Of a stretch of DNA of 64,000 nucleotides, positions 75-50,598 are shown piece after piece. Under the pieces are notes generated by a model. It had not been told where the DNA came from and did not search any database. It was given only the letters and a program-made list of their open reading frames with translations. The stretch covers positions 48,114-112,113 of the forward strand of contig JANQAO010000003.1 in NCBI GenBank assembly GCA_030386295.1. Direction: 5' to 3'. The translations under genes were made by a program, and so were the position numbers. Position 1 is the first letter of the stretch. Each line of letters opens with the position of its first letter. The DNA comes from Candidatus Doriopsillibacter californiensis. Lineage in GTDB: Bacteria > Pseudomonadota > Gammaproteobacteria > Tethybacterales > Persebacteraceae.

Positions 75-1493
75 ATGGCCATTAACCTCACCATATCCGC
101 CGCCGCGAGAAGCTTACTAGTTGACCCCGCCAATACGGGCACTCGTGCAATTCGTATAACACACATCCAACTGGGAGAAGGCAGTAGAGTACCCGATGGC
201 ACCGAAGTAGGATTAGTTACAGCAGTAGCCACCGGTGATTTTGTCGGTGATGTCAACGCGCAAACGGGGGAGATAGCGGGCAGCGCTATATTTACCGGGG
301 CCGCGGCTATAGACGCCAGTGAGGTAGCGATTATCGCGCAAATAGAAGACTCAGAGTTTGTTTTTGCTTACTGGTCAACTGCGGCGGGCGAGGTTGAATT
401 TAGGAAATTAGCGGGTCAAGACGCCCGCCTAGCGCTCGCCGTCAGATTTGACACGACCCCGGCCGCCAGTATAACTTTTGGCCAAACAGCAGCGATCACA
501 TTCAATAATGAATTTGTCCGATTGGAGGACACGCCAAAGGAAATAGACCCCTGCATGGCAGTTGTGGGTAATCCGTCCGGTGATGGATTATTATTCACAG
601 ATAGCCTAGCGGCGAACACGTTATATTATTATGCGGCACTAACTACCCCCGTGGGCGCGGGTGGTAACACTCATGATATATTGGCTGTAATTTCGAGTGG
701 CTCAGGGTTAGAGCCATTAACAGCTACCAATGCTATAGAACACCTGCAATCATTAACGCCGCAAATAGGTCTAATCCCGCGGCCGTCAGCGACCGCCATA
801 AACGCCACTGATAAGTTGCGTGCGAAGTATATCGGCGTGATTAAAGCCCGCCTCTACGAGCCCAACGCCAGCCAAGATGGCTGGCAATTGTCAGCAACCT
901 TACCGGTATCGTCATCATCCGCAGCACCGGTAGAATTGGTGAGTTCTTATGGTAATGTAGTTTTAAGTGTGTCGCCTCCGGCAACAGCGATAAGCCGTCA
1001 AGTCGGCAGGGTAGTAGGATATGAGGACAGAGCGCAGGCGATAGCTATCATCGCAATAGACTTACCCGCGAGTGTACCGCAGGCGACAGACAGCAAGCAA
1101 GGCGTGATGCGATTTGCTACAGACACAGAGGTTTCGTCCCGCGAGAATGTGGCGGCTGCGGTGAGACCTTCATCGATGCTGCTGCCAGAACCAATAACGT
1201 TATGGTCAGGATCTAGCTTATCGGCGGCGAATATGTCAATAAGCGAGGGGGAATGGTTAGATTATTTCATGTTGGGTGTTGTGGCGGACCCCAACACTGA
1301 AAATACAGACGCGGTAGGCGGGGCGTACGCCATGCCGGGGTCGTTATTTAACGCAGGCAATCGGTTCTATATCGGCGAACGCGAAGAGCATGGTTATATC
1401 GAACGGCAGACGTCCACGACGTTCAGTTACACTGCGGCGACACGTAACTTTGATATCCCCTACATAGTGCTTTTTTGGGGCATTAAAAAATAA
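75..1493 (+). CDS. phage tail fibre-like protein (N-terminal tail-collar/fibre domain)
   Basis: 472 aa. The N-terminus (MAINLTISAAARSLLVDPANTGTRAIRITHIQLGEG...) follows the P2 gpH-type tail-fibre N-terminal pattern (TxAGxAxL...GxxxxIThxxxGxG...P). The rest is Ala/Thr/Ser/Gly-rich. The gene sits at the window edge and is followed by gene fragments. Confidence 0.45.
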   Translation: MAINLTISAAARSLLVDPANTGTRAIRITHIQLGEGSRVPDGTEVGLVTAVATGDFVGDVNAQTGEIAGSAIFTGAAAIDASEVAIIAQIEDSEFVFAYWSTAAGEVEFRKLAGQDARLALAVRFDTTPAASITFGQTAAITFNNEFVRLEDTPKEIDPCMAVVGNPSGDGLLFTDSLAANTLYYYAALTTPVGAGGNTHDILAVISSGSGLEPLTATNAIEHLQSLTPQIGLIPRPSATAINATDKLRAKYIGVIKARLYEPNASQDGWQLSATLPVSSSSAAPVELVSSYGNVVLSVSPPATAISRQVGRVVGYEDRAQAIAIIAIDLPASVPQATDSKQGVMRFATDTEVSSRENVAAAVRPSSMLLPEPITLWSGSSLSAANMSISEGEWLDYFMLGVVADPNTENTDAVGGAYAMPGSLFNAGNRFYIGEREEHGYIERQTSTTFSYTAATRNFDIPYIVLFWGIKK

Positions 1494-1798
1494 GGAACAA
1501 GCCACATTTTTCCGCCACGCTTTTTTCTTTCCGTTTTATTGTTTGTTTTTATAATCAACACAGTGATATTTGTATATCTGTCGTTAAGCAAGAAGTTTAC
1601 CAAATTGCTGTTACCACCGCCGATGTCAATAATGGCGGCGGTCTTATCCAAAGCCTTAGCAAATAGCAAATCGGTGCATGGTCTTTCCATTTGACGACGA
1701 TACAAAACGAGTTGCTTGGCCAAATGCTCCGGTAAGCTCAGTTGCACGCAACGGGCTTCCGAAGGACGGTTTTCTATGGAGCAAATAAAATTATTCAT
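1460..1798 (-). pseudogene. N-terminal fragment of a class I SAM-dependent methyltransferase (truncated)
   Basis: The ORF carries a motif-I-like AIIDIGGGNSNLV but only about 90 aa are coherent. It then runs into and overlaps the 3' end of the tail-fibre gene. Confidence 0.3.
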
Positions 1799-1955
1799 AC
1801 ATTGTTGATTGCATCAACTAGCTCACAGGGCAACCAAAAAAATCTGGGGAGCTGTGCGTGGAGACGATGAGCTGAAATGTGAAGGTGAAAACAGGGAACT
1901 TAATTCCACTAAATTTTTTCGTTAAAAATCAATCTTTAGGAGTATTAATTATTGG

Positions 1956-2615
1956 GTGTCATTTTCTGGTGATCCCCGAACGGAAAAACGGCGGAGCTAC
2001 ATGATGACGGAGCATCATTTGGCAGCTAACTTTACGGTTGTTAATGGTAAGGCGACTTTTATTCCCATGTTTTACGGTGCTGATCCGGGAGTTATCGGAA
2101 ATGGTGCTTATGCTGGGCATGATTTTTTATCTCACGAAGGCAATCGCGGTTTGGAATTGATTAACGCAATGAATAATGAACAGAAAAAAACAGCAATAGC
2201 TGCTGAAGAGGTTATGTTTAATAAATTTGGTGCTCTTGCGTTTCGTGGTCTGGGAACAAAAGATAAGCCGATTAAAGCGTAAGGAATCAGTGCAAAGAAC
2301 TTGTTTGATGAACAGCAAAAATTACTTTGGATATTGATTGAAGAATACGTGCGTAATGCTGATTTTGATGTGGCCAAAGCTCAATTGGAAAAAATACAAA
2401 AGGGAGGTCTTGATAAATTAAGTTTTATGTGGATGGGGCCGACTGACGGCGTTGAAAATATTTTTTATCAGATTTACGAACCTGCAATTTTAATTAATTT
2501 CGTTAACCAGCATACTGGGTTTGACTGGAATACCCTCCCTCACATTATTATCCGTGACTCGTTTAACGATTATGGTGAGAATTGGCTTCAGAGGCATATT
2601 TTAGAAGAGCACTAA
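1956..2615 (+). pseudogene. conserved hypothetical protein interrupted by an in-frame TAA (or two small ORFs)
   Basis: ORFs 1956-2282 and 2301-2615 lie in the same frame (both start coordinates are 0 mod 3). Only TAA at 2280-2282 separates them. The first starts with GTG and the second with TTG. Confidence 0.35.
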
Positions 2616-2760
2616 TACATCGTATTTTCGCTGAACACTTTAAGGTTTTTGATGTAGATGTTGGGTAAAAGTAAGGTGCTGGTCGCCTAGACTTTCATTA
2701 TTGTAGCTACCGTGTTTGATACATGCCTCCACCAAGAGTGGCAGTGGTCGTGTGGTGAGT

Positions 2761-3498: not shown

Positions 3499-3577
3499 GG
3501 TTGCATTATGTCATAGTGAAAACATGCCGGTGAACAAGGCGAAATATAATTTTGCTCGCGAGTTAAGAAAGGTTTAA

Positions 3578-4795
3578 TTAATTTTTTGATGTGTGCAAAT
3601 GAGAAAATTTTTCTTTCCATTTAATGCAGCGTTGTGCATCACGCTCTTCGTAGATACGGGTGGCAGAAGGAAGATCTAACGTTAACTCATTTTCTCGATT
3701 TTCACCCCAATCCGTTAATCGCATAGTGTACCAATTCGTTATCCCACCTGGAGGTGCAGACTCAAATTTTGGGAAATCAGGATTTCCCCCGGTTTCGGTC
3801 AACCAAGTTTCTGCCAGTCGTGGATTGAGAACCATAGCGCGTGCTAAACCTACCATATCAGCTGCGCCACTAGCTACTGCCTCTATTGCTTGCTCGCGTC
3901 TTTTGAATCCCCCAGTCACCATCAGTGGCACGCGAGTTATCTCTTTTGCGAGTTGGGCAAAATTAATAAAGTATGGTTCTTGGCTTGAGCTGTCAGAGCT
4001 TGCTTTTGCCATAGGGATATAAGTTCCTCCGCTAATATCAATCAGATCTATAGATGTTTGATCGAGCAGGCGTACTACTTTTAAAGCATCAGTTTCTGTC
4101 AAGCCTCCTTCTATTTTATCTGTCGAATTAATCCTAATTCCGATAGGAAACGACGGACCAACGGCATGCCGTACTTCGTCTATTATTTCGATTACTATAC
4201 GGCATCGTGATTCGATTGAACCTCCGTAGCCATCATTCCGGTAATTAAACAGTGGACATAGAAATTGACTGAGTAGAAAACCATGTCCGGCATGTATTTG
4301 AACGCCGCTAAATCCGGCAGTCTGTGCATGTAATGCAGCTTTTGCATACATATCAGGTAATTTTTTTATTTCTTTAATTGACATGCCAGCACATTGAAGA
4401 CCTTCAATATTAAGGGCGGATGGCCCCTTGGGACAACTAATGGGCAGGTGTGAAAGAGCTCCAGCATGACCGAGTTGTACCCAGAGATGAGCGCCCTCAA
4501 TCACGCCTCTCTTGGTAAGTGACCGTATCATTTTTTGATCTGTCTCTGTACTGAGAACTAAATTTCCCGGTTTTTCAGGAAATCGAGGATCTACTTGGAC
4601 TTCACCGATAAAAGAAACAGCGGCTCCGCCTTCTGCCCATCTTTCGTAAAGTCGAATCTGTGCTTTGGTGGGGTCACCCTCACCATTCCCAAGCGAATCC
4701 GACATGGCAGACTTGGCTAAGCGATTTTTAAAAATAGCGCCACAAGGAAGTTTTAGCAAACTTTGAAGAATATGAATGGAATTTGAGTTTTTCAT
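3578..4795 (-). CDS. NADH:flavin oxidoreductase, Old Yellow Enzyme family
   Basis: 405 aa. It has the OYE motif HAGHGFLLSQFL, an N-terminal LPCGAIFKNRLAKSAM and a TIM-barrel FMN-site pattern. Confidence 0.85.
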   Translation of the reverse strand: MKNSNSIHILQSLLKLPCGAIFKNRLAKSAMSDSLGNGEGDPTKAQIRLYERWAEGGAAVSFIGEVQVDPRFPEKPGNLVLSTETDQKMIRSLTKRGVIEGAHLWVQLGHAGALSHLPISCPKGPSALNIEGLQCAGMSIKEIKKLPDMYAKAALHAQTAGFSGVQIHAGHGFLLSQFLCPLFNYRNDGYGGSIESRCRIVIEIIDEVRHAVGPSFPIGIRINSTDKIEGGLTETDALKVVRLLDQTSIDLIDISGGTYIPMAKASSDSSSQEPYFINFAQLAKEITRVPLMVTGGFKRREQAIEAVASGAADMVGLARAMVLNPRLAETWLTETGGNPDFPKFESAPPGGITNWYTMRLTDWGENRENELTLDLPSATRIYEERDAQRCIKWKEKFSHLHTSKN

Positions 4796-4933
4796 AGAAA
4801 ATTAAATTTTAAGTAGTTAACTTCTACAGAAAGAGAAATTTTATTAAAACATTAATCAGAACTTTCTTACGCTTGGATAGACATGATTTTTCAGTTGTGT
4901 TTGCTGCTGAGAGCATGCGTTCTGAATTAAGTT

Positions 4934-6135
4934 TTAGTTTGAATATTTCATATACCAATCGCAAAATTGTTTGCAGTGACGCTCGTCATCAGAAAAAACA
5001 CCTGGGCGATAGTAATCAGAAAGAGCTCCTTGAGTCATTGATTTACAAAGATTTTCGTCTTCAGTGTTTGTTACTTTCCACACACTAGTCATATGCTTAC
5101 GCTCAAAATCTTTTCCTTCTACTGCATCTTTATGCACAATCCAACTGGTATAAAGAACACACTTATATTCATTCAAAGGTAATATCCAATTAGTTGCAAT
5201 ATGGTCGCTGACAAAATGAATCCATCCGTTTGGATTGAACCAAAACGACAATGTTCCTTCGTACTCTTTGTGAGGACCTATCAACCTTGCGCTACACGGT
5301 TTTCCATCAAAACTAGTTGATTTATGGCCTTTCTTCATCGGATATCTGGCAATACGACAACTATCATGTGTATCAAACGCCTGTTCTTTCCACAGCAATC
5401 CTTTCGCCTCCCATTTTTTGGTTGCTTGGTTGAATATTTTTAAATATTCAAGGTCTTTGCTTCCATTAAAACTATTATCACTAAATAGCTTGAGTAGTCC
5501 CTTATTGTTAGCCTGACAATGACAGCATTCGCGATTGTTGAGCATTACACCAACCAATTAGCATCGATTTCTACACGCTCATGGTAGGCTAGTTTATATT
5601 CGTCTTTACCGAGGTGATAATGATGGATGTATGGATTAATCAGTTTTTGTACATTCGTCATGTCTTCTTTACATTGTTCATCATTTTCGAGACAAGCAAA
5701 CAATAAACCTTCAACTTCTTGAAGTGGAACACTATCAAGTTTGCAGGATTTTCCTGCATCGGAATACATAAATTCTTTAGGCATTCTTGCTGCATGGCGT
5801 AGGCTACCATCATTTAGGTTATAAGACCATTGATGGTTAGGGCAGACAATTGATGGTTAGGGCAGACAATTGATGAAGAACATTTGCCAACATTTTTTGT
5901 CACCAATCGAGCGCTTTAATGGGCACAGCGATTTACATGCATCGAATTACGCCATCAGTACCGTGTATTAAAAAATGAGAATTTTCTAGTAATTCAAAAG
6001 ATAAATAATTCATTTTTTCAGGTACATCTCCACGAGTTCCTACAAAAAACCATTTATTATGAAATAACTGTTTCATCCGGTTCGTATCAAACAACACTTC
6101 TTTAGGAAATGAATGTCCATAGCGGTATTCCTCTT
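4934..6135 (-). pseudogene. Rieske [2Fe-2S] non-haem iron oxygenase alpha subunit, inactivated
   Basis: The minus-strand translation gives Rieske box 1 (VNRCAH) followed by a stop at 5916-5918. Box 2 (IVCPNHQWSYNLNDGSL) is split by a 20-bp tandem duplication. The downstream ORFs 5545-5784 and 4934-5557 overlap out of frame and carry an ENxxExxH-like stretch (NNRECCHCQ). I count at least four lesions. Confidence 0.6.
5831..5870. repeat. perfect 2 x 20 bp tandem direct repeat (TGATGGTTAGGGCAGACAAT)
   Basis: Read directly. Copies at 5831-5850 and 5851-5870 are followed by a partial third copy (TGATG). The repeat lies inside the Rieske box-2 coding region. Since 20 bp is not a multiple of 3, it shifts the frame. 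Confidence 0.9.
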
Positions 6136-6163: not shown

Positions 6164-7086
6164 TTAGGGAGATTTAATGAGGTTGTCTATATTGACTACG
6201 TTTTCGGCCATGCGGGCGGATTCGGCATCAATCACTTTTCCGTCTAGCTGTGCGGCACCGCGTCCTTCTGCTGCTGCGCTTTTTAGCGCTGCTAAAATCG
6301 CTTGGGCGCGGCAACTTCCGCCGGCGGTGGAGAAAATACCTCGTTGGCAAGTGAGATTTGTGAAGGATGAATCGCCCATTTACCTTCAATACCTAAAGAC
6401 GCCGCACGGCGGGCAGCTAGCATGAAAGAATCTGAATCGTTAAAATCTCCAAAAGGACCGTCAATTGCGCGTAATCCATAGGCGCGGCAAGCGGCCGTCA
6501 TACGTGACAGTGCAAAATGCCATTGGTCGCCCGGATAATCAGGATTAAGTTCGCCAATAACTACTGTGCGTGCACGACAACTAGCAGCATAATCGGTGAC
6601 GCCAAAGTGTAACGCTTCCAGTCGCCGGCTGGATTGGGCAATGGCTTCAACGTTGGCCATTCCCAGCGCGGTTTCTATCAGTGCTTCCAAAACGATGCGG
6701 TGAGTGTATCCCATTGCCTGTTCAATTTGGTTGCAGAGCATGTCCACCGCATACAAATCAGCGGCAACGCCAACTTTGGGTACTAAAATTGTGTCTAAAT
6801 GGGCCCCTGCCTGCTCTAACGTATCAACTACATCACGGTACATATAGTGTGTATCCAGACCATTAATGCGAATGGAAATAGTTTTTCCCTTTGCTTTCCA
6901 GTCAATATCATTGAGTGCCTGAATAATGTTGCTGCGCGCCTTTTCTTTGTCTGCCGGTGCTACGGCGTCTTCCATATCCAAAAACACATAATCGGCGGCA
7001 CTGTCTGCTGCTTTTTGAATCATTGCTGGCATGGAGCCCGGCCGCTGCAGGCGGGTTTGTGCTGGTTGAAAAATTGTGTGACTCAT
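6164..7086 (-). pseudogene. HpcH/HpaI-family citrate lyase beta (CitE) / malyl-CoA lyase-like protein, frameshifted near the 3' end
   Basis: The 264 aa ORF 6292-7086 matches a CitE-like protein up to WAIHPSQISLANEVFSP. The expected C-terminus (AQAILAALKSAAAEGRGAAQLDGKVIDAESARMAENV) continues in another frame, in ORF 6164-6379. The frames are consistent with a single missing C in a C/G-rich run near 6310-6330. Confidence 0.5.
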
Positions 7087-8685: not shown

Positions 8686-9009
8686 TCGTGTATTCTCCCA
8701 GCGAAATTAGATAAAAGTTGATTTTAAAGCAAGTGCCGGAAAAATGATAGAGACGAGCTGCTGTCTCCGCCATTTTGACAACTAGGCAATGTGCGGTGCA
8801 GGCTTTGTGTCATCCTAACGTGCCGCTTTTGTAGATTATAAAGAAGTAGCAAAGTGATGAAAGTTCAACTGTTAGCAGCTGGATTTTTGAATCTCATTTT
8901 TCGTAAGAAAAACATAAGCTGACGGCGACAACGGCGTCAAAAAAGATTAACCAAAATAGAATAACTTTTGATATTCGTTGCTAATTATTATAATTAGGCT
9001 TTCCACTGT

Positions 9010-13121: not shown

Positions 13122-13456
13122 TTGCCAACAAAAGGAGAAAATAATATGGCTTATGTTGACGGGTACATTGCTGCCGTGCCTACAGCAAACAAAGATAGTT
13201 ACAAAGAACACGCGGTTAAGGTAGCGGCAGTTTTTAAGGAGAACGGCGCGCTGAAAACTGTTCAGTGTTGGGGTGATGAAGTGCCAGAAGGAAAAAATAC
13301 ATCATTTCCAATGGCGGTTAAATGCAAAGAAGATGAGGCGGTTGTATTTGTATGAAAAAATCGATGGCCGATCCGCGTATGCATCCTCCCGGTAATCAGA
13401 TGCTCTTTGATGGTAAGAGAATTATATTTGGCGGTTTTGAGGTAATTGCTGAGTAA
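13122..13456 (+). pseudogene. DUF1428 (YbaA-like) protein with an internal deletion and frameshift
   Basis: The N-terminal 77 aa (MAYVDGYIAAVP...EAVVFV*) match DUF1428. The C-terminal part (MADPRMHPPGNQMLFDGKRIIFGGFEVIAE) continues in another frame from 13352. About 18 aa of the family consensus are missing in between. Confidence 0.55.
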
Positions 13457-16148: not shown

Positions 16149-16595
16149 ATGTCTCCTGTTGTCATTGTTAATAATGCGCCCATTGATGCGGGCGCTGAAA
16201 GCGGTCATATTCACGCTGCTACTGCTGGTGACGCCGGTGCGGTGCTGTGTTTTAGCGGAGCAGTTCGTGGTGGTGATGTGCTGGCGATGACGTTGGAACA
16301 CTATCCAGACATGACGGAACTCGCTTTGCGAGATATTGCGGTGGCAGCAGAAAAACGTTGGGCACTGTTGGCGGTGCGGGTACGTCATCGTGTCGGGCGC
16401 ATGATGCCGGGAGAAATTATTGTTTTTGTTGGTGTGGCTACTACGCATCGTGCTGATGCTTTTGCCGCTGGTTCCTACATCATGGACTATCTTAAAACAC
16501 AGGCGCCATTTTGGAAAAAAGAAGAAACCACGGCCGGTTGTCGTTGGGTGGATGCTCGCGATACTGATGATGATGCCCGAAATCGTTGGGAATAG
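16149..16595 (+). CDS. moaE: molybdopterin synthase catalytic subunit MoaE
   Basis: 148 aa. FSGAVRG and IMDYLKTQAPFWKKE match MoaE signatures. No moaD lies upstream. Confidence 0.8.
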   Translation: MSPVVIVNNAPIDAGAESGHIHAATAGDAGAVLCFSGAVRGGDVLAMTLEHYPDMTELALRDIAVAAEKRWALLAVRVRHRVGRMMPGEIIVFVGVATTHRADAFAAGSYIMDYLKTQAPFWKKEETTAGCRWVDARDTDDDARNRWE

Positions 16596-17164
16596 TGAGC
16601 CTCATCGCCGTCATTGCCGCCGCCGCATTAGCCGACAATATTATTTTGGCGAAAATGTTAGGTTTGTGTCCGTTCACTGGACTGTCCAAGCGGCTAGATG
16701 TGGCCGTTGGTGTTGGCGTGGCGACGGCTGCAGTACTCACGCTATCCGCTGCTGCTGCGTGGGTTGTCAACGCTACGTTATTGCAAAACATATCGTCATT
16801 ACAGCCACTTATTTTTATCACATTAGCTGCGATAGTAGTGCAGGGAGCAGAATTAGCTATGCGCCTGTGGATGCCGCTCATGCACCGGATGCTGGGGTTA
16901 TATTTGCCGCTTATTGCGACCAATTGTGCGGTGCTGGGGGTAATGTTGCTGGCGGTGCGCAAGTCACCAGATTCTTTTATTGAAGCGGTAGCGCGTGGTT
17001 TTGGCGGTGGGGTAGGCTTTTTGCTGGCAATGGTGTGCTTAGCCTTAGTGCGCGAGCGCATAACTGATTCGCAAGTGCCGGTAGCCATGCGCGGGGCACC
17101 GCTTACTATGATCACAATAGGCTGGATGGCGCTGGCGTTTTCAGGGTTGCACGGAATTTTTTAA
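16586..17164 (+). CDS. rnfA: Rnf/Rsx electron transport complex subunit A
   Basis: 192 aa with six TM helices. KMLGLCPFTGLSKRLDVAVGVG and LPLIATNCAVLGV match RnfA/RsxA. It overlaps the moaE stop by 10 bp. Confidence 0.85.
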   Translation: MGIVSLIAVIAAAALADNIILAKMLGLCPFTGLSKRLDVAVGVGVATAAVLTLSAAAAWVVNATLLQNISSLQPLIFITLAAIVVQGAELAMRLWMPLMHRMLGLYLPLIATNCAVLGVMLLAVRKSPDSFIEAVARGFGGGVGFLLAMVCLALVRERITDSQVPVAMRGAPLTMITIGWMALAFSGLHGIF

Positions 17165-17172
17165 CAAATGCA

Positions 17173-17652
17173 ATGACAACAGTGGCGTTAATCCTGCTGA
17201 TGGCCGTAGCAGGCGGTTTATTGGGCTTTTTGTATCAACGTACGACTCTGCAAGATAGCACAGCACCTCTCACTGCTGCACTTAACGAGGCGCTGCCGCA
17301 ATTGCAATGTGGTGACTGCGGTTACCCAGGTTGCCGACCTTACGCTGCCGCAATTGCTTGTGGCGAAGCGGAAATTAATCTATGCCCGCCCGGTGGCTCG
17401 GAAACCGTGCAGCAGTTAGCGCAATTGCTCAATGTTGAGCCGCCACTCATACCGCAGCAGCCGCAGCGGCTGGTAGCAGTTATTCGTGCAGAAGATTGTG
17501 TAGGCTGTGCGTTGTGCTTACCGGTATGCCCGACAGATGCAATTGTTGGTGCCACACGTCATCGCCACACTGTTATCACCGAACACTGCGTGGGCTGTCG
17601 TTTATGTTTGCCTCCTTGCCCAACAAATTGTATTGAAATGCATCCTGAATAA
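17173..17652 (+). CDS. rnfB: Rnf/Rsx electron transport complex subunit B (ferredoxin)
   Basis: 159 aa. It has the QCGDCGYPGCRPYAAAI motif and two CxxCxxCxxxCP ferredoxin motifs, like RsxB. Confidence 0.85.
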   Translation: MTTVALILLMAVAGGLLGFLYQRTTLQDSTAPLTAALNEALPQLQCGDCGYPGCRPYAAAIACGEAEINLCPPGGSETVQQLAQLLNVEPPLIPQQPQRLVAVIRAEDCVGCALCLPVCPTDAIVGATRHRHTVITEHCVGCRLCLPPCPTNCIEMHPE

Positions 17653-17819: not shown

Positions 17820-19259
17820 TTATTGCGGTAATCGTGAATTTCCCATTAAAAAAGCGTCAACGGCATGGGCACACTGGCGTCCTTCTCTAATCGCCCAAAC
17901 TACTAAAGACTGACCACGCCGCGTATCACCGGCAGCAAATATCTTAGGTAGTGAAGTTTGGTAGTCTCGTTCATTTGCCAGTACATTGCCTCGGTTATCT
18001 AGTTTTACTGCTAATTTATCCAGCAATCCGGTATGTACTGGGTGAATGTATCCCATAGCCAGTAAGGCTAATTGTGCAGGTAGCTCAAACTCAGAACCCG
18101 GTATTTCTTCCATTACAAACTTGCCATTGTCATCGTGCCAGCGTACTTGTGCGGCGCGTATTTGCTGCAACTGACCCTCGGAGTCGCCGATAAAGGCTTT
18201 GGTAATCACGCTCCACTCCCGTTTGCAACCTTCATCGTGTGATGAGGACGTGCGTAGTTTCATGGGCCAGTTGGGCCAAACAAGTTGTTTGTTTTCTTCT
18301 TCTGGTGGGCACGCCAATAATTCAAATTGCGTTACGCTTGCTGCAGTCTGTCGGTTGGAAGTACCGATGCAGTCAGATCCCGTATCGCCGCCGCCGATAA
18401 CTACAACATCTTTTCCGGTAGCTAAAATATCCGCCGTATTAACTGGTAGTCCGGCAACGCGCCGGTTTTGTTGGGGGAGAAAGTCCATGGCGAAATGTAC
18501 CCCTTTGAGTTTGTGTCCCGGTATGGGTAAATCACGCGGTTGTTCGCTGCCTGCCGCTAGCACCAGAGCGTGAAATTCCGCTAATAATTTATTTGCTGAC
18601 GCGCCGTCGTCAATATGGGTATTGGTATGAAAAACAACTCCTTCTGCCTCCATTTGCGCAATGCGGCGGTCAATGAGATGTTTTTCCATCTTGAAGTCAG
18701 GAATGCCAAAGCGTAATAACCCTCCGACTTTTTCATTTTTTTCAAATATATGCGGTTCATGTCCGGCACGAGCTAACTGTTGAGCACAGGCTAGCCCCGC
18801 TGGTCCGGAACCCACGATAGCCACTCGTTTGCCGCTTTTATTGGCGGGTGGACAAGGAGATATCCACCCTTCTTCCCAGCCACAATCAACAATAGCGCGT
18901 TCTACGGATTTGATAGCAACTGCATCATCGTTAATGTTTAACGTGCAGGCAGCCTCACATGGTGCAGGACAGACGCGACCAGTAAACTCGGGGAAATTGT
19001 TGGTGGAATGTAATTTATTTAGAGCTTGTCGCCATTGTTTGCGATAAATGAGATCGTTCCAATCGGGGATGATGTTATGCACTGGGCAACCAGTCTGGCA
19101 AAATGGAATGCCACAATCCATGCACCGAGCTGCCTGCTGGCTGACGTCAGTTGCATCTGGATGAATGGTAAATTCTCGATAATGTTGTAGGCGTTCGGAA
19201 ACCGGTGCATAGGCACCCGTTTCACGTTCTATTTCCAAAAAACCGGTAGTTTTTCCCAT
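17820..19259 (-). CDS. glutamate synthase small-subunit-like NADPH-dependent FAD/FeS oxidoreductase (GltD family)
   Basis: About 480 aa with N-terminal Cys clusters ([26 protein letters not shown]) and a Rossmann motif ([11 protein letters not shown]). No gltB large-subunit gene is adjacent. Confidence 0.8.
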
Positions 19260-22432: not shown

Positions 22433-23350
22433 TTATAAAATTAACCGTTGTTGAAATAACACCTGCGTTACTCCGCGGCTGAAGTGACTAAAAATTTCGT
22501 CAGTCCAATCTCGTGGTGTATAACTTATCGTATAGTCCACACCGATAACATCTCGCGCTACATAGCCGGTGTCGCCTAAGCCGTCGGCCAAGCCGAGTCT
22601 GACGTTGTGTTCACCGACAAAAATAGCCCCGGAAAAAATATCCGGGTGTGCTGTTAACCGATCGCCACGTCCCTGTCTTACCGCTTCCTGAAAATTATCG
22701 TGAATGACACTGACAATATTGTCAATGCGCGTTCGCTCTTCTTCACTTTGCGGCGAAAAAGGGTCAAACATGTTTTTGTTTTCTCCACCAGTTTGCACAC
22801 GGCGAGAAACGCCTAGTTTTTCCATTGTCTCCACGAATCCGAAACTAGAAAAAATAACGCCGATAGAACCCACAAGGCTATTGTCATCCACATAAATTTC
22901 ATCAGTGGCGGCGGCAATATAGTAGCCACCGGAAGCACAAAAATCACCAGCTACCGCATAAACTTTCTTTTGTGGATACTTGTTTCGTAACCTTAGCAAT
23001 TCGCGGTAAATACGGTTAGATTCGACGGCACTGCCACCAGGGCTGTTAATGCGTAAGATAACGCCTTTTGCGGATTCTGCTTCAAAGGCATTACGCAATG
23101 CGGCATTGATGTTGACCGCACTATTGCTGCCGCTGGCCTCTATCACACCGTTAATGTCAATAACAGCAGCATGTGGGCCGTGATTTGAAATATTCGGCGT
23201 GTGCACAAAATAAGCAGCGGTTAGTGCTAGCACATAAATCAGCATGATAAATTTGAAAAAAGTGCCCCAGCGTCGCCGCGTTCTTTGCTCACGCAAAGAC
23301 GATTCTGCTAGCCGTTCTACTAAATTTCGGTCGTGATTGTCAGTTGTCAT
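22433..23350 (-). CDS. S49-family signal peptide peptidase (SppA/SohB-like)
   Basis: It has an N-terminal TM segment and an S49 catalytic region (ILRINSPGGS...AVAGDFCASGGYYIA). I chose the start at MTTDNHD to avoid an 89-bp overlap with truB. Confidence 0.8.
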   Translation of the reverse strand: MTTDNHDRNLVERLAESSLREQRTRRRWGTFFKFIMLIYVLALTAAYFVHTPNISNHGPHAAVIDINGVIEASGSNSAVNINAALRNAFEAESAKGVILRINSPGGSAVESNRIYRELLRLRNKYPQKKVYAVAGDFCASGGYYIAAATDEIYVDDNSLVGSIGVIFSSFGFVETMEKLGVSRRVQTGGENKNMFDPFSPQSEEERTRIDNIVSVIHDNFQEAVRQGRGDRLTAHPDIFSGAIFVGEHNVRLGLADGLGDTGYVARDVIGVDYTISYTPRDWTDEIFSHFSRGVTQVLFQQRLIL

Positions 23351-24236
23351 AGTTTTTCTTTTCTCTAGTCCATGATAGCAATTTTTGAGGTAAAAAGCAC
23401 GTTTCGCGTTGACGGGCAACGCCGGCAAAACGGTTATTAGCCGTTTGTAGCCGCACTAATTGCCCGCTTTCTTCATTTTCATCGGATGGCGGACATTCGC
23501 GCTGTCCCTGCGCCAGTGCCCATAAACGCGTATTGTCCACGGATTGAGCGGGTAGATGAGTTAGCGCCGTTTCAATAGATAATTGTTTTGCCGTAGCTGA
23601 TGTGGTTAGTGAATCTAATACTTGTGCCTGGGCAATATCAAAGGGGGCACATTGCAATCGACGCAAGGCTGACAAATAAGCACCACAACCAACGCGAACA
23701 CCTAAATCATGCGCTAGCGAACGTACATAAAAACCTCCGCCGCAACGGATGAAGAGCGTAATATTATCATTCTCACTTTTCTCTAGTGTAAGTTCATGTA
23801 CCCGCACTTGTCGTCGTTTTTCCGGTACGGAGATATTTTTGCGAGCATAATGATATAGCGGCTTGCCTTTGTATTTGAGAGCACTGTGTTGTGGTGCGGT
23901 TTGCATTATCGTACCAATAAAATCGGGCAGTATATCGCGTACTCGTGTCACTAAATCTGCGGGCGGGTGCTGTTGTGTGCTGACATTTCCCCACGCGTCA
24001 CCGGTGTCGGAAACGGCACCAAAGCTTACGGTAGCGCGATAGGCTTTATCGTCGGGCATAAAACGAATATATCCTGCTGCTTCTCCCAGTGCAATCGTTA
24101 ACAGTCCGGTGGCCATTGGGTCCAACGTGCCGGTGTGTCCGGTTTTAACGCCATTAAATAAACGCCTTACAATAGCGACGGCTTGTGCTGAAGTAGCACC
24201 TTGATGTTTATCAATAAGCACAAATGTGCCAGCCAT
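23340..24236 (-). CDS. truB: tRNA pseudouridine(55) synthase TruB
   Basis: 298 aa. The catalytic motif is GHTGTLDPMATGLL, with a PUA-like C-terminus. It occupies the conserved position after rbfA. Confidence 0.9.
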   Translation of the reverse strand: MAGTFVLIDKHQGATSAQAVAIVRRLFNGVKTGHTGTLDPMATGLLTIALGEAAGYIRFMPDDKAYRATVSFGAVSDTGDAWGNVSTQQHPPADLVTRVRDILPDFIGTIMQTAPQHSALKYKGKPLYHYARKNISVPEKRRQVRVHELTLEKSENDNITLFIRCGGGFYVRSLAHDLGVRVGCGAYLSALRRLQCAPFDIAQAQVLDSLTTSATAKQLSIETALTHLPAQSVDNTRLWALAQGQRECPPSDENEESGQLVRLQTANNRFAGVARQRETCFLPQKLLSWTREKKNYDN

Positions 24237-24241
24237 TACAG

Positions 24242-27153: not shown

Positions 27154-27155
27154 GC

Positions 27156-28697
27156 TTATACAGTCGTTTCTTCATCAAGATCGTTAATGTTGTAGGCTTG
27201 CTCACGAGCGAGCAAGACGCAGGCGGCGGCAGTTTCGTTTGGCATTTTATGAAACTCCTGTAATTCGTCGGCAGCCAAATCAGCCAAATCAGCGACTTTT
27301 AGAACATCGTTTTTCGCCAATTCCCGCAATATCTCTTCGCTGTCAGGAAAAAATTCGCTGACTAGTGTGACCAGAGCGGACTCTTGCTTTTCCATATTTG
27401 CCTGCAATTCGCTTTCTTCTTTTTCTACTTGTTCACGGGCGCGGGTTTGAATTTCGCGTACCACGTCAGGCTGAAAGCCTTGAATTTCGAGCAATTCCTC
27501 TTCTTCGGCAAATGCTACGTGTTCCAAGGTTTCAAAGCCTTCTTCAAACAAAATGCGTGCGGCATCTTCTTCCAGATTGAGCGCTTTACCTAAACGGGCA
27601 CTATTTTGGGAGGTCTCTTCCTCTAGAGCTGCTTCATATTCTTCCATTGTTTTGAGATTAAGGCGCCAACCAGTTAATTCTGATGCTAGCCGCACATTAA
27701 CACCATTTTTTCCGATAGCTTGTGCCAGTCGGTCAGGGTCTACTAAAACATCCATGCTACCTTTGTCGCGGTCAACGGATATTTTTGTTACTTCTGCCGG
27801 AGCTAACGCTAGCAACACGTATTTGGCATCATCGTCATCCCAAGGAATAATGTCAATGCGCTCACCGTTGAGTTCATTGGTTACGGACTGTACTCGTGAA
27901 CCGCGAATGCCGACGCAAGTGCCTACTGGATCTACGCGGGCGTCGTTAGAGCGTACGGCAATTTTGGCACGGTTTCCCGGGTCACGTACCGCAGCAATGA
28001 TTTCCAAAATGCCTTTTTCAATTTCTGGTACCACACGTTGAAATAGTAGCGTTAAAAAGCGTGGGCTAATGCGCGTAAGAATAACTGGTTGCCCTGTTGC
28101 CTCGTTGTTGATGTCTTTTATTAATGCTTGAACCCGGTCACCGGCCTTAAGCGTTTCGCGTGGAATCATCTGACTTTTAGGTAGTCGGCATTCCAGTCGC
28201 AAGACTTCTACAATTACGTCTCCGGTATCCCGTAGCACCCGTAATACTTGACCGTTAACCAATTCTTCATTGCGCGCCAACAAATCATTGAGTAGTCGTT
28301 GTTTTTCGGCTTCGCGTAGGCGAATGTTGAAATTTTGCTTAGCAGAATGTACGCAGGGACGGGTGTTAAATTTTTGATTTTCCAGCGATTTTTCTACCCA
28401 TTCGCCGGCGACGACATCGGTCTTGATTTCCTGTGCTGATTCCAACATGATTTCAGCTTGTGGATTTTCCATTAATTCATCATCGGCTAGAACGCGCCAT
28501 TTTCTAAAAGCGTCAACTTGGCCGCTGACAGAATCAATGTTCACTCGAAATTCAGCATCGTGTGTGTCGTTGGCACTGCGCCGCAGAGAATAGGCCAATG
28601 AATCAGAAAAAATATCTAGCACCTGATCAAACGGCAGGTCTTTCTCCCGAGAGATGGATTGAATGTACATTAACAAATCCGCACCGCCGATATCCAT
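27156..28697 (-). CDS. nusA: transcription termination/antitermination factor NusA
   Basis: 513 aa with S1, KH and C-terminal acidic repeat domains, collinear with E. coli NusA. Confidence 0.95.
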   Translation of the reverse strand: MDIGGADLLMYIQSISREKDLPFDQVLDIFSDSLAYSLRRSANDTHDAEFRVNIDSVSGQVDAFRKWRVLADDELMENPQAEIMLESAQEIKTDVVAGEWVEKSLENQKFNTRPCVHSAKQNFNIRLREAEKQRLLNDLLARNEELVNGQVLRVLRDTGDVIVEVLRLECRLPKSQMIPRETLKAGDRVQALIKDINNEATGQPVILTRISPRFLTLLFQRVVPEIEKGILEIIAAVRDPGNRAKIAVRSNDARVDPVGTCVGIRGSRVQSVTNELNGERIDIIPWDDDDAKYVLLALAPAEVTKISVDRDKGSMDVLVDPDRLAQAIGKNGVNVRLASELTGWRLNLKTMEEYEAALEEETSQNSARLGKALNLEEDAARILFEEGFETLEHVAFAEEEELLEIQGFQPDVVREIQTRAREQVEKEESELQANMEKQESALVTLVSEFFPDSEEILRELAKNDVLKVADLADLAADELQEFHKMPNETAAACVLLAREQAYNINDLDEETTV

Positions 28698-28748
28698 AAT
28701 TTTTTTCCCTTTTTATATTAGTGATGAAATGAAGCGAGCAATACGCAA

Positions 28749-28771
28749 CAAAAAAAGGGGGCGACGCCCCC
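28749..28771 (-). terminator. putative rho-independent terminator downstream of xerC
   Basis: On the plus strand, AAAAAAAGGGGGCGACGCCCCC. On the minus strand this reads as a GGGGGCG/CGCCCCC hairpin followed by a T-run. Confidence 0.5.
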
Positions 28772-28880
28772 AATTGTGCATTTAAAAGCCAACGCATTGC
28801 AAATGCCAAACCACTAATTCTACACTAGCATTACACAAAAACGATTATTACTTGGGATTGTGCGCTGGTTATGTCAAAAA

Positions 28881-29765
28881 TTAATGAGCTTTCTTTTTTG
28901 CACGTGGATGAGCAAGGTCATACGTTTTTGCCAGATTTTGAAAATCTAAGCGCGTGTATATTTGTGTGGAAGTAATATCACGGTGGCCAAGTAGGTCTTG
29001 TGTGGCACGTAAATCACCGCTGGATTGCAAAAAATGTGAGGCGCAAGAATGCCGCAAAACATGCGGGCTAACTTGTCCAGCCATACCTAGACGAGCGGCG
29101 CGGGTGGATAGGCGTTGTTGTACTGTGCGAACGTTGAGACGACCACCGCGGCGATTAACAAACAACGCCGTTTCATTGTGATTTGCGGCACTTGCACGCG
29201 CCGTAAGCCAGCAGGATAAGGCTTTTTGAGCTACCGTGCCGGCGGGAACAACGCGACCTCGTCCTCCTTTTCCGCGCTGCACGTGAACCATGCCGGCGGA
29301 TATGTCGCTCACATTTAAGGCAGTCATTTCTCCTACGCGTAAGCCGGTAGAGTACAGTAATTCAAACATAGCATCATCACGCCATTTGAGCCAACCACTG
29401 CCTGTATCGTCGTTTAGCAAAAAAGCTGTTTTGTCCGGTGTCAGTGCCCGCGGCAGGCGTCCCTGTTTTTTTGGGGCGCGTAGACTGTGTGCTGGATTGT
29501 TCCGAATGTCACCGGTTTTGAGTAAATAATTAAAAAATAAACGCCAAGTAGATAGCCGTCGCGCCGTGGATGCCGGACTCATGCCGTGTTGTGTGGCTAG
29601 CAGGTGGCGCATATTTTGCGGTGTGATGTCGGTGAGCGGCATGGGTAGCGCATTCTGTAATATCTCCAAGTCTCGGCGATATGCTTCTACCGTATGCACT
29701 GACAGTCGTCGCACAGCGGCTGTTTCGTGCACAAATGCAGCTGACGCTTCTTTTAGAGTATTCAT
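28881..29765 (-). CDS. xerC: tyrosine site-specific recombinase XerC
   Basis: It has the R..HxxR..Y catalytic residues (LRHSCASH, TQIYT). It overlaps the upstream DUF484 gene by 4 bp, as in the yigA-xerC arrangement. Confidence 0.85.
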   Translation of the reverse strand: MNTLKEASAAFVHETAAVRRLSVHTVEAYRRDLEILQNALPMPLTDITPQNMRHLLATQHGMSPASTARRLSTWRLFFNYLLKTGDIRNNPAHSLRAPKKQGRLPRALTPDKTAFLLNDDTGSGWLKWRDDAMFELLYSTGLRVGEMTALNVSDISAGMVHVQRGKGGRGRVVPAGTVAQKALSCWLTARASAANHNETALFVNRRGGRLNVRTVQQRLSTRAARLGMAGQVSPHVLRHSCASHFLQSSGDLRATQDLLGHRDITSTQIYTRLDFQNLAKTYDLAHPRAKKKAH

Positions 29766-30295
29766 ATTACCGCCGCCAGCAATTGCGCTAATCGGCGGCA
29801 AAATGTGTCATCACCAGCCGAAAATTTTTTGCCGGAAAGGGTGGTAAGGATTACTAATCCCACTGCTTTCCTTCCGCGCTTAAGAGGCAAATGATAGTAC
29901 CCCTCGGTTTTTGCCGCTGAGTTGTCCAATGGTAACTTATCGGCACGACCGCCAGCAGGTAAGCGCGCTGTTTTTGTTGCTAATGCTTTCATATCATTAT
30001 TAAAAATCATAATACGACAACTGCCAGCTTTCATTCCTCGGCGTATCAGTGTTTCGGTTTTTTGTAACCATTCAGTATCGCGGCGAATGAGTAACAGCGA
30101 CACGTCATGCATCATGGTAACAATGGCATCATTGTCAGCGGCAATATTTCGTGCGTCGGTTAACTGACGTTGCAGTAAGCGATTTTTCTCTCGTAGAGTG
30201 GTTATTTCTCTAGCGCGAATGTCAAGTGATTGTGCCATTACTTTATTGTATCGGGTCAGCAGGCTGAGGCAAAAAATAATTTTAGATTTTTGCAA
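29762..30295 (-). CDS. DUF484 (YigA-like) protein
   Basis: 177 aa matching the coiled-coil and C-terminal parts of YigA. It lacks the first 60 or so aa of E. coli YigA. It occupies the conserved position upstream of xerC. Confidence 0.55.
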   Translation of the reverse strand: MQKSKIIFCLSLLTRYNKVMAQSLDIRAREITTLREKNRLLQRQLTDARNIAADNDAIVTMMHDVSLLLIRRDTEWLQKTETLIRRGMKAGSCRIMIFNNDMKALATKTARLPAGGRADKLPLDNSAAKTEGYYHLPLKRGRKAVGLVILTTLSGKKFSAGDDTFCRRLAQLLAAVI

Positions 30296-41795: not shown

Positions 41796-42254
41796 TCATA
41801 CACTATCTGCAGGGGCTTGTCCGGATAATGGTGCATTGCGCAAGCGAATACGTAGCTGGCGATGCGAATCGGCATCCATGCTATCTGTAGCGGCGAGAAT
41901 ACTAAATCGCTGCTGACCACTGCGCACAACAAAAATCGTTAGTATCGGCGATACAAAGCGGCTTGTTAACTGTCCGCATTGCGTACTATTATTGATAAAA
42001 AGTTCAATATTGCCGTTTGGCAGAAAATGGAAGCTGCGCACTACATTTTTTCCTTCAAGTAATGCATGGCGGCGAAAGTGCACAGTGAATATTATCGCCA
42101 CAGCTAAAATTACCAAAATTCGTAGTGGGTATGAGATTGCTATAATGCTTCCTGCACCAATGGTAGCAACAGTACCTACCAATATCAGCGATATGGCAAT
42201 AATACGCGATGAGGACAATACAAAACGAGATTCCACGATGAACGAGAGTAACAC
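41796..42254 (-). CDS. YgfX/CptA-like inner membrane protein (DUF1434)
   Basis: Two N-terminal TM helices. The C-terminal FSILAATDSMDADSHRQLRIRLRN resembles the E. coli YgfX LWLAADSMDEAEWRDLRRILL. The start is uncertain because the longest ORF overlaps the ygfZ start. Confidence 0.45.
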   Translation of the reverse strand: MLLSFIVESRFVLSSSRIIAISLILVGTVATIGAGSIIAISYPLRILVILAVAIIFTVHFRRHALLEGKNVVRSFHFLPNGNIELFINNSTQCGQLTSRFVSPILTIFVVRSGQQRFSILAATDSMDADSHRQLRIRLRNAPLSGQAPADSV

Positions 42255-45879: not shown

Positions 45880-45884
45880 CGACT

Positions 45885-46859: not shown

Positions 46860-46948
46860 TTGACGGCTAATAGCAATCACCATTGCGAGAAGATTATCTA
46901 ACTCTCTCTTGATAGTATGCGGTTATCAGCTTATGCTTCTACCGTGAT

Positions 46949-47368: not shown

Positions 47369-47373
47369 GCAAA

Positions 47374-49038: not shown

Positions 49039-49072
49039 TATCGTGCCTCCGCGTGTTATTGCGGGGTGGCAA

Positions 49073-49921
49073 ATGCTGGTTTTTGGCGGTGCATACGGTA
49101 ATCTGTCAGCATTGCAGGCGTTGTTGAGAGTAGTTGGTAGCGAGCAATCGTTGAATATTGTATGTACCGGCGATCTCGTTGCTTATTGTGCTGATGGTGC
49201 GGCGGTTTGTGAATTGGTGCGTGACAAAATCCCGGATGCTACCTTTGTCCGCGGTAATTGCGAACGTGCGGTGGGAAATGATGAGGAAGATTGTGGTTGC
49301 GGTTTTGACACCGATAGTACCTGCGCGCTGTTGTCTGTTTCATGGCATCGCCATGCTCGTATCAATATTTCCGCTACTACTAAAGTATGGATGAAGAAAC
49401 TGCCCATGCGAACAGATATCGTCTTCGGTGGGCGGAAATTGGCCGTTGTTCATGCCGATGGCGTGAGTGATAACCGTTTTATTTTTCCATCTACACCGGA
49501 ATCAAACAAACAAGCAGTTTTAAGTGCTATGGGGGTGGACGGCGTTATTGCTGGTCACAGCGGCATTCCTTTTACGCAGATGTTGAACAATGGCGGAATT
49601 TGGCACAATAGTGGTGCGCTGGGTATGCCAGCCAATGATGGGACTAATCGTGTTTGGTACGCGCTATGGACGGTGGAAGCGGATGGTATTCACATTACTC
49701 ATCATGCATTGAATTATGATATTGCTGTAACTGCGTCGACCATGAAAGCTGCCGGATTGCCGCCCGATTATCGGCTTACATTGGATTCTGGGATTTGGCC
49801 TAGCGATAGTGTTTTGCCGGAAATAGAACGACGACAACAGGGTCAACAGCTCAATCCTCCACCAGTTTTTTGGCCTTCTTCAACGATAGTTATTAAGAAG
49901 ACGAGCAGCGTGCCGCGCTAA
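49073..49921 (+). CDS. calcineurin-like metallophosphoesterase family protein
   Basis: Motifs GDLVAY, RGNCE, the HADGVSD region and GHSG fit the metallophosphatase fold. I placed the start at MLVFGGAYGNL. Confidence 0.55.
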   Translation: MLVFGGAYGNLSALQALLRVVGSEQSLNIVCTGDLVAYCADGAAVCELVRDKIPDATFVRGNCERAVGNDEEDCGCGFDTDSTCALLSVSWHRHARINISATTKVWMKKLPMRTDIVFGGRKLAVVHADGVSDNRFIFPSTPESNKQAVLSAMGVDGVIAGHSGIPFTQMLNNGGIWHNSGALGMPANDGTNRVWYALWTVEADGIHITHHALNYDIAVTASTMKAAGLPPDYRLTLDSGIWPSDSVLPEIERRQQGQQLNPPPVFWPSSTIVIKKTSSVPR

Positions 49922-50122
49922 CTACCGTGCTGTAGCCACGCGGCACAGTGTTGTTCAACGGAGTCAAAATCAGGCAGGACGAAATTACGAGTTCCAAATG
50001 GCAATGTGATAAGTGTGTCAACAATATTTGCACTGAGTAATGGTTTATTTTTATTTTCGCCTCTCAGCACAGTAGTTTCACGCTACTTTCAATAAATAGC
50101 GTAATGTACTTGCGCGTTTGGC

Positions 50123-50598
50123 TTAATTGCCTTCTATATGCACTTGCCATGGACTTTTACTGTCGCCAGAAAAATAAAAACGCACTGCAGGAGGATGCTG
50201 TTGTGCTCGGCGGATGGCAAACTCAATAAGATCGCGTGCTGTGCCGCTGGATTGGGCTCCGCCGTGCACTACGGTCTGCGGAGTAAAAACATCACCAATG
50301 TGGCGTAAATGTCGGTTGTAACCTTGCTGCCGTTGCGTATAAGCAGAATCAAAAAATGGAGCTTTCCACTAAGAGCTGCCGTGTACCAAGTTGTCCCAAT
50401 AATCAACATGCAATTCTAATGCTGCCACGTTATCGCGGCGGGAGAAATTTTTTAAAAATAACTGTTCTGCTGGTGAGCAGGAATAGCACCCCTGTGAGGT
50501 GAACGGTTCTACCAAAATCTCACAGACGGCGCTGCAGCCCCTTCTGTAACTGCCGACAGTGGCGTCAGAACTATCAACTAAACGATAATATTTTTCAT
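50123..50598 (-). pseudogene. DUF1223 (thioredoxin-fold, CxxC) protein remnant
   Basis: No ORF of 60 aa or more covers this 680-bp gap. The minus-strand translation gives LVEPFTSQGCYSCSPAE...ALELHVDYWDNL..(TAG)..FFDSAYTQRQQGYNRHL...TPQTVVHGG, matching the DUF1223 consensus (FTSQGCSSCPPAD...HVDYWD...FTQRQ). It contains an in-frame stop, and both ends are disrupted. Confidence 0.5.

Follow-up and report, generated by a model that had tools for sequence, protein, structure and literature searches.

Pseudogenes in Tethybacterales and comparable symbionts

Tethybacterales Sp02-1, a symbiont of the sponge Tsitsikamma favus (Waterworth et al. 2021, PMC8546597), belongs to an order for which pseudogene-rich genomes are already on record. 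Its genome of 2.95 Mb contains about 25% pseudogenes, with a coding density of 65%, and this abundance of pseudogenes, in which it resembles other genomes of the order according to the authors, has been read as ongoing genome reduction (PMC8546597). Candidatus Doriopsillibacter californiensis Df01 (Ca. Persebacteraceae, Ca. Tethybacterales) is likewise host-associated, as are all members of the order that have been described. The paper describing it locates the symbiont in the mantle goblet cells of the nudibranch Doriopsilla fulva and gives a genome of 1,532,643 bp (1.53 Mb) at 99% completeness, so that the host-restricted lifestyle and the small genome that accompany reductive evolution are both found in Df01. 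That paper mentions neither pseudogenes nor coding density, genome reduction or prophages, and its supplementary files do not mention pseudogenes, rimP, sdhE, gltB or rnfC. The Tethybacterales compared here comprise Df01 (1.53 Mb), relatives with contigs of 1.87–2.43 Mb, and Sp02-1 (2.95 Mb).

The window, that is, the whole stretch of 64,000 nucleotides analysed here, derives from the Df01 chromosome, as its NusA protein is 100% identical to that in the NCBI entry for 'Candidatus Persebacteraceae bacterium Df01'. Compared with Sp02-1, the genome is smaller (1.53 Mb), the window shows pseudogenes at about 10% with an intact coding density of 87%, and the host is a mollusc instead of a sponge. 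Early- and mid-stage insect symbionts have larger genomes, often with many insertion sequence (IS) elements. No IS elements or notable repeat families were found in the Df01 window, which therefore lacks the IS or repeat proliferation that marks an early stage. Df01 is similar to Sodalis glossinidius and Serratia symbiotica (PMC7067036, PMC5013485) in having recognisable pseudogenes of mixed age among intact housekeeping genes, as well as a decayed prophage; almost 50% pseudogenes are reported for S. glossinidius. Horizontal transfers that fail are known to be another major source of prokaryotic pseudogenes (Liu et al. 2004, PMC522871), and the likeness to them lies in prophage-side pseudogenes with atypically low GC, whereas the DUF1223 gene of the window is native, its orthologue in a relative being intact and syntenic. 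The decay in Df01, though not reported before, is an ordinary example of a known process. It extends the pattern known from sponge Tethybacterales to a mollusc host, and it opens no new question.

Table 1. Features of the Df01 window (coordinates counted from its first nucleotide)
Feature	Position	Strand	Remarks
Tail-fibre-like gene, 472 aa	75-1493	+	Last gene of an eroded Mu-like prophage reaching left of the window
Class I SAM-dependent methyltransferase, putative 5' stub	1556-1798	-	~80 codons left, end just past motif I
DUF3500 pseudogene	1950-2615	+	5' third deleted, in-frame TAA at 2280-2282
Rieske non-haem iron oxygenase alpha-subunit pseudogene	4934-6103	-	Segments 6103-5933, 5939-5850, 5850-5545, 5557-4934
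CitE-like (beta-methylmalyl-CoA / L-malyl-CoA lyase type) pseudogene	6164-7086	-	1-nt deletion near 6310
DUF1428 pseudogene	13122-13456	+	Internal deletion of ~13 codons plus frameshift
moaE-rnfA-rnfB trio	16149-17652	+	No moaD before, no rnfCDGE after; NCBIfam
gltD (glutamate synthase small subunit), intact	17820-19259	-	TIGR01317, 699 bits vs cutoff 448
nusA	27156-28880	-	183-bp upstream gap, then xerC in place of rimP
ygfX-like ORF	41796-42254	-	Cpta_toxin, E 2e-5, profile positions 8-132/133
ygfZ-like gene	~42085/42130-43068	+	YgfZ NCBIfam match
DUF1223 (PF06764) full-length pseudogene	49918 to ~50600	-	At least one frameshift plus three in-frame stops

Six degraded genes and the reality of their lesions

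The preliminary description had counted six degraded genes in the window, and all six are real. Each was checked by translation, Pfam coverage and/or homologue alignment, and matching assemblies carry the same lesions. The methyltransferase fragment retains motif I (IIDIGGGNSNLV...NITVL), where homology ends, and the later motifs of class I SAM-dependent methyltransferases are missing; the called ORF (1460-1798) continues past the stub into the complement of the tail-fibre gene. A Pfam search of the stub gave zero matches, and its homologues are weak (E ~1e-4), these carrying positions 1 to ~50 of the Methyltransf_12/25/11 profiles. The methyltransferase assignment, putative since it rests on these weak homologues, is the least secure among the six. 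The in-frame TAA that had been noticed as splitting a reading frame was read directly, and the gene that it interrupts is a 5'-truncated member of the DUF3500 family, whose joined translation covers positions 92-297/297 of PF12006 (E 1e-40, Pfam).

The segments of the Rieske oxygenase gene are spread over three reading frames, so that at least three frame changes are needed to connect them, and a stop codon lies immediately past the first C-x-H. The Rieske (1-82/88) and Ring_hydroxyl_A (3-205/208) domains were recovered only on the conceptual protein obtained by joining the three frames. As no single continuous frame holds both domains (PF00355 and PF00848), the gene is a pseudogene of this family. 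The frameshift reported for the CitE-like lyase is also present: following the deletion, the ORF ends at 264 aa, compared with a full length of ~314 aa in the family. In addition, the gene has lost five residues, the invariant SELAV of the N-terminal RLQR-SELAV-PGSNP motif (RLQRSELAVPGSNP), and the alignment reveals changes at otherwise invariant residues, namely the N of PGSNP and the second G of GGLNP. It is thus not a full-length member of the HpcH/HpaI-CitE family (malyl-CoA lyase type), although its conceptual protein of 307 aa shares 80% identity over 100% of the length with intact homologues of 312–320 aa.

For DUF1428, the internal deletion described previously, of about 13 residues, is accompanied by a frameshift; the 89 residues of the joined sequence cover PF07237 positions 2-102/102, and the split gene call recurs in four other independent assemblies. 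The DUF1223 gene had been described as a remnant in an ORF-free gap. It is degraded indeed, not as a stub but as a full-length pseudogene that fills this gap, which extends from a metallophosphoesterase gene to gdhA. A tblastn search with the intact 236-aa orthologue of the 1.87 Mb relative aligned residues 30-145 to 50515-50168 (52% identity) and residues 154-222 to 50130-49924 in a different frame (48% identity), so that homology, split between two frames and interrupted by three stops, extends over residues 30-222 of that orthologue, and a continuous ORF is absent. In the relative, the intact DUF1223 occupies the corresponding position with the same orientation, which shows lineage-specific decay of this gene in Df01. 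Among the six pseudogenes, an intact orthologue in a relative was established for DUF1223 alone. For the other five, syntenic relatives were not found among the matches listed in searches with AdoHcyase and old yellow enzyme (OYE).

Since the DNA was amplified from sorts of several cells, and chimeric joins occur in a few assemblies (L002, L008, L014), it could be argued that sequencing, whole-genome amplification or assembly produced the lesions artificially. This is barely conceivable. More than 15 sorted-cell samples, all of one host animal, gave independent assemblies that are 99.9–100% identical to the window, and all those that overlap the lesions show the window's version at those positions, which rules out assembly error. 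Furthermore, most lesions are multiple (several frameshifts or stops, deletions of 15–40 nt, missing thirds of genes) and are accompanied by substitutions at invariant residues, and the deletion in the CitE-like gene lies outside any long homopolymer. Programmed frameshifting and stop-codon readthrough were also considered and rejected, given that most lesions are multiple, with deletions and loss of invariant residues.

Pseudogene load, base composition and the adjoining prophage

Pseudogenes account for 9.7% of the gene-like features of the window (6/62), and more fragments occur in both flanks, the whole sample amounting to ~84 kb of the 1.53 Mb genome. This fraction is clearly above the reported background of 1–5%. 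The excess is modest, the binomial probability of at least 6 among 62 being 0.01 at a background of 3%. At a background of 5% it rises to 0.09, and the window was chosen after the lesions had been noticed, which would suit an ordinary pseudogene level clustered by chance in a window of a normal genome. This explanation is nevertheless very improbable, as both outside flanks, neither of which was used for making the finding, are eroded as well, and Df01 is independently known as host-associated with a small genome. Coding density, which had been proposed as a check for genome reduction, is near normal in the window, where intact genes cover 86.7%; across the adjoining right 10 kb it falls to 59–68%. 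In this right flank, a purD-like ATP-grasp fragment is interrupted by an in-frame stop, and there are fragments of putA, present as a duplicate, and of a 2H-phosphoesterase gene; its repeats comprise the putA duplicate and one of 110 nt. The core information-processing genes of the window, for their part, are full length as previously described, with lengths that agree with those of orthologues in relatives.

The 10 kb to the left are occupied by a prophage with fragmentary genes. Upstream on the contig lie GemA, Mu gp27, Portal_Mu, gp36, Baseplate_J and Tail_P2_I, and the tail-fibre-like gene at the edge of the window has a weak match to a PHROG tail protein. Its neighbours are fragmentary, for example a head protease spanning 23-91 of 339 profile positions, and no large terminase, capsid, sheath or tape-measure gene was called in the prophage region.

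Intact genes of the window have a GC content of 47.5 +/- 3.0%, and intergenic DNA of 35.5%. The CitE-like (49.8%) and DUF1223 (47.5%) pseudogenes are normal in this respect; DUF3500 (38.6%) and the Rieske gene (36.5%), the latter being the lowest among the measured gene and pseudogene features of the window, come close to the intergenic value. Decay thus follows a gradient, with a lone 1-nt deletion in DNA of normal GC at one end and, at the other, AT-shifted relics that combine several lesions. The 36.5–38.6% GC of the older pseudogenes is as expected from AT-biased drift, a signal that foreign origin could also yield; the genome as a whole, at 47% GC, is not AT-rich. An Rfam scan of the whole window detected two tRNAs only, and no riboswitch or small RNA that would account for the longer intergenic gaps.

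The composition of the left cluster (methyltransferase, DUF3500, Rieske and CitE-like genes) also bears on the proposal that decay is local, the cluster being a failed horizontally acquired island that rots together with the prophage while the rest of the genome carries an ordinary load. Four of the six lesions fall inside 5.6 kb (1.5–7.1 kb) adjoining the prophage end, and GC is low in DUF3500, in the Rieske gene and in the intact OYE gene between them. The best CitE-like homologues from named organisms, at 80% identity, belong to unrelated taxa (Thiolinea, Aestuariispira, Roseovarius). A search of metagenome contigs with the OYE protein gave ten homologues (71–79% identity) in unrelated gene contexts, none of them neighboured by DUF3500, PpoB2, Rieske, CitE or AhcY, and a search of genome contigs with AdoHcyase gave, among the matches listed, at most 76% identity, in unrelated orders, with no close genome. 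However, AT-biased decay predicts the low GC equally well, DUF1428 and DUF1223 are found amid housekeeping genes at distances of 6 kb and 43 kb, the latter with its intact counterpart in the relative, and the right 10 kb outside the window are eroded too. Part of the pseudogene signal may come from the decay of a local island beside the prophage, but it is unlikely that such an island explains the whole.

The six lesions are therefore best explained, with a probability of roughly 80%, as true pseudogenes at differing stages of decay in a host-bound symbiont that is still shedding genes. We infer relaxed selection as the cause, as well as the extension of the pattern genome-wide. According to this model, purifying selection would be relaxed in a host-bound, bottlenecked population on dispensable accessory genes, here the Rieske oxygenase, the malyl-CoA-type lyase, DUF3500, DUF1428, DUF1223, the methyltransferase and phage genes. 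Frameshifts, stop codons and deletions would become fixed in them, and the inactivated DNA would drift to the AT-rich composition of intergenic regions and later be deleted, while housekeeping genes would remain intact. The preliminary description had attributed the pattern to a lineage under relaxed selection, for instance a recently host-restricted one. Host restriction agrees with the nudibranch symbiont and its 1.53 Mb genome, but the evidence does not extend to 'recently', all described members of the order being host-associated.

More tentatively, Df01 could be undergoing a fresh wave of active erosion, with about 10% pseudogenes genome-wide, despite having the smallest Tethybacterales genome compared. 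The trigger could be a switch from sponge hosts to the nudibranch, and metabolic genes (malyl-CoA lyase, Rieske oxygenase, purD-like) would be lost as dependence on the host grows. If this doubtful possibility were true, Df01 would be a rare example, from a marine mollusc, of a system observed midway through reductive evolution. In either case, about 1 in 10 gene-like features of the window is dead, which affects metabolic reconstructions of the symbiont that involve the malyl-CoA lyase, the Rieske oxygenase or the purD-like gene.

Gene order compared with relatives

Five losses at the level of the locus had also been proposed, and rimP, sdhE, gltB, rnfCDGE and moaD are in fact absent at the positions named for them. 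The interpretation as recent loss fails for three of the five (rimP, moaD and rnfCDGE), as relatives share the same order. Two relatives, whose NusA proteins are 73% and 64% identical, are likewise without rimP upstream of nusA; visual inspection of the gap upstream of nusA in Df01 revealed no RimP-like reading frame, and six-frame translations of the remaining intergenic gaps, viewed in the same way, contained no RimP-like or other obvious remnant. The moaE-rnfA-rnfB trio recurs with the same boundaries in two relatives (RnfA identity 74% and 59%), so that rnfA and rnfB stand alone for the Rnf complex at this locus in all three genomes. Since both arrangements are also found in relatives, they represent inherited gene order rather than recent loss, and the locus-level absences constitute weak evidence for genome reduction. 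Gene-order 'losses' judged against E. coli can be the inherited order of a distant lineage.

As regards the other two loci, gltD lacks an adjacent gltB, and its upstream neighbour encodes a 289-aa PhyH-like protein. With no sdhE between them, the ygfX-like and ygfZ-like genes are divergent, and their 5' ends overlap.

The degraded genes of the window

All six of the degraded genes named in the preliminary description are real (6/6), as judged by translation, by family and homologue comparison and by independent assemblies. Exact-protein look-ups located the window on JGI contig Ga0416805_05 (140,619 bp) and revealed that its sequence recurs in many further small JGI and SRA assemblies. Nineteen such assembly loci match it with 99.9–100% identity, a few of them with chimeric joins; the assemblies are identical because the cells were sorted from one animal, and the lesion data come from this single host. 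For every lesion there are independent sorted-cell assemblies that span the region, agree with the window and carry the same split gene calls, and most lesions are multiple, with sizeable deletions included, so that the six are not artefacts. In three of these assemblies (L002 1–680, L008 1–224 and L014 1–280) the initial segment maps to another window site or lies inverted. The joins resemble amplification chimeras, and they lie clear of all six lesions.

Pseudogenes of the window and eroded or repeated features of its right flank (L105, contig DNA right of window position 64000)
Feature	Position	Strand	Observation
Methyltransferase stub	1556–1798	-	N-terminal region and motif I (IIDIGGGNSNLV...NITVL), no homology beyond
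DUF3500 pseudogene	1950–2615	+	profile positions 92–297/297 only; interrupted by TAA at 2280–2282
Rieske oxygenase pseudogene	4934–6103	-	both domains near-complete only on joining four segments in three frames
CitE-like pseudogene	6164–7086	-	one C missing near 6310
DUF1428 pseudogene	13122–13456	+	about 13 codons missing; frame shift at junction
DUF1223 pseudogene	49918 to about 50600	-	two frames, three stops
purD-like ATP-grasp fragment	L105 262–1143		profile positions 82–193/194, in-frame stop
Partial putA duplicate	L105 6490–6725		236 nt, 91% identical to L105 5135–5370
2H-phosphoesterase fragment	L105 1–10000
110-nt repeat	L105 1412–1521 and 2538–2647		copies in two gaps

Restoring the single missing C to the CitE-like gene yields a 307-aa protein with 80% identity, over its full length, to intact malyl-CoA-lyase-type proteins of 312–320 aa; the alignment also shows that the invariant SELAV motif is deleted and that invariant residues are altered. 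In the Rieske pseudogene a stop comes after the first C-x-H. The DUF3500 remnant lies about 150 bp from the start of the methyltransferase, and its 5' third must therefore have been deleted. The methyltransferase stub itself is the least secure of the six assignments. Its called ORF runs on as the complement of the adjoining tail-fibre gene, a Pfam search gave no match, and an exhaustive search turned up no more than eight weak homologues (E about 1e-4); seven of these carry the first 40–70 positions of class I methyltransferase domain profiles.

Gene order in related genomes

The nearest relatives identified are represented by long ENA contigs; their NusA identities are 73%, 64% and lower, and their RnfA identities 74% and 59%. 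Near-complete among them are ERZ25073868 ctg77345 (2.03 Mb), ERZ25073864 contig_2 (2.43 Mb) and ERZ26051029 contig_3 (1.87 Mb). The intact genes of the window have the lengths of their orthologues in these relatives. A 1.87 Mb relative carries the block msrB-yciB-bolA-ppiC-metallophosphoesterase-DUF1223-gdhA-mltG-tmk-holB-tatD with an intact DUF1223 gene on the minus strand, at exactly the position of the pseudogene in Df01, the symbiont lineage bearing the window. This intact gene at the same position is direct evidence that DUF1223 was inactivated within the Df01 lineage. A DUF1223 remnant had been described in an ORF-free gap; a degraded gene is indeed there, but it is more than a remnant, since residues 30–145 (52% identity) and 154–222 (48%) of the relative's 236-aa orthologue can both be aligned, and the pseudogene therefore occupies the entire gap.

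The supposed losses of rimP, moaD and rnfCDGE have to be read differently: the genes are absent at the positions named, but this arrangement is common to the relatives and is no mark of current decay. rimP is missing upstream of nusA in Df01 and likewise in the 73% relative (where an EamA gene stands instead) and in the 64% relative, which has two small ORFs there that Pfam does not match. The order nusA-infB-rbfA-truB, followed by an S49/NfeD-type peptidase, is shared by Df01 (22433–28880) and the nusA neighbourhoods of relatives L103 and L118 (10001–16400), and in none of the three genomes does rpsO-pnp follow truB within the stretches seen. The trio moaE-rnfA-rnfB recurs likewise in Df01 (16149–17652) and in two other Tethybacterales genomes (L106 9598–11148; L107 9552–11104), with neither moaD before it nor rnfCDGE after it adjoining in any of the three. 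The absences at these loci are thus characters that the lineage has inherited. RnfA falls short of the NCBIfam cutoffs, at 176 bits vs 240. Members of the order either have their Rnf genes distributed over more than one locus or retain RnfA and RnfB as an orphan pair with a different role.

The gltD gene encodes a genuine small subunit, with a TIGR01317 score of 699 bits vs a cutoff of 448, and has a PhyH-like gene, not gltB, as its neighbour. No sdhE separates the ygfX-like ORF from the ygfZ-like gene that it faces. The 5' ends of the two (- and + strand, respectively) overlap within 41992–42254 by roughly 70–170 bp, depending on the start codons; gene callers cut ygfX to 95 aa, with which its predicted membrane helices would go. 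Upstream of xerC, a 177-aa gene (29762–30295) gives a faint DUF484 (YigA-like) match at profile positions 40–123/219, and could be a yigA that is shortened or has diverged strongly. The S-adenosylhomocysteine hydrolase gene has a 324-bp leader (8686–9009), in which neither a SAH riboswitch nor any other Rfam family was found.

Extent and age of the decay

Of the window, 86.7% is taken up by 56 intact coding genes, 6.1% by the six pseudogenes and 7% by true intergenic DNA. Pseudogenes thus make up 6 of 62 gene-like features (9.7%), and published data give a background of 1–5%. The binomial probability is 0.01 at a 3% background and 0.09 at 5%, an excess that is suggestive but falls short of decisive, as these very lesions were the reason for flagging the window. 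Both 10-kb flanks on the same contig are eroded as well, so that within the approximately 84 kb of genome examined the decay reaches beyond the sample where it was first noticed. The right flank (L105 1–10000) is only 59–68% coding. The left flank (L100 1–10000) holds an eroded Mu-like prophage that retains GemA, gp27, portal, gp36, baseplate J and Tail_P2_I genes, together with fragments including the head protease (profile positions 23–91/339) and Neck1; among the genes called in these 10 kb there is no large terminase, major capsid, sheath or tape-measure gene.

Intact genes have a GC content of 47.5 +/- 3.0% and intergenic DNA 35.5%. The pseudogenes range from the gene-like end (CitE-like 49.8%, DUF1223 47.5%) through DUF1428 and the methyltransferase stub (42–43%) to values near intergenic DNA (DUF3500 38.6%, Rieske 36.5%). 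This gradient fits inactivations in succession, followed by AT-biased drift; a foreign origin of the left-hand cluster (methyltransferase, DUF3500, Rieske and CitE-like lesions) would be expected to leave a similar signal. Amid these pseudogenes an OYE-family flavin oxidoreductase gene (3578–4795) is intact, with an unusually low third-position GC of 32%; its homologues in metagenomes (71–79% identity) have none of the window's neighbouring genes beside them.

Gene decay in a host-bound symbiont

The window's NusA protein is 100% identical to that of the NCBI entry 'Candidatus Persebacteraceae bacterium Df01', which the literature equates with Ca. Doriopsillibacter californiensis. This bacterium is a member of Ca. 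Tethybacterales whose cells were fluorescence-sorted from the mantle of a single nudibranch, Doriopsilla fulva Df01, where it resides in mucus goblet cells; its co-assembly, 99% complete, spans 1,532,643 bp over five scaffolds (PMC10262491). The host-bound lifestyle that had been read from the sequence is borne out by this location; that the restriction is recent finds no support, since every described member of the order is host-associated. The lesions are best explained by reductive evolution still under way in a symbiont bound to its host: accessory genes and the prophage would be inactivated and removed, and housekeeping genes retained. For the left-hand cluster, partial decay of an island is a real alternative, as four of the six cluster beside the prophage.

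Pseudogenes, coding density, genome reduction and prophages are all unmentioned in the text and supplements of PMC10262491. The gene decay in Df01 is a previously undescribed example of a known process and no new phenomenon, because pseudogene-rich, low-density genomes have already been published for Tethybacterales, among them Sp02-1, with ~25% pseudogenes and a coding density of 65% (PMC8546597).
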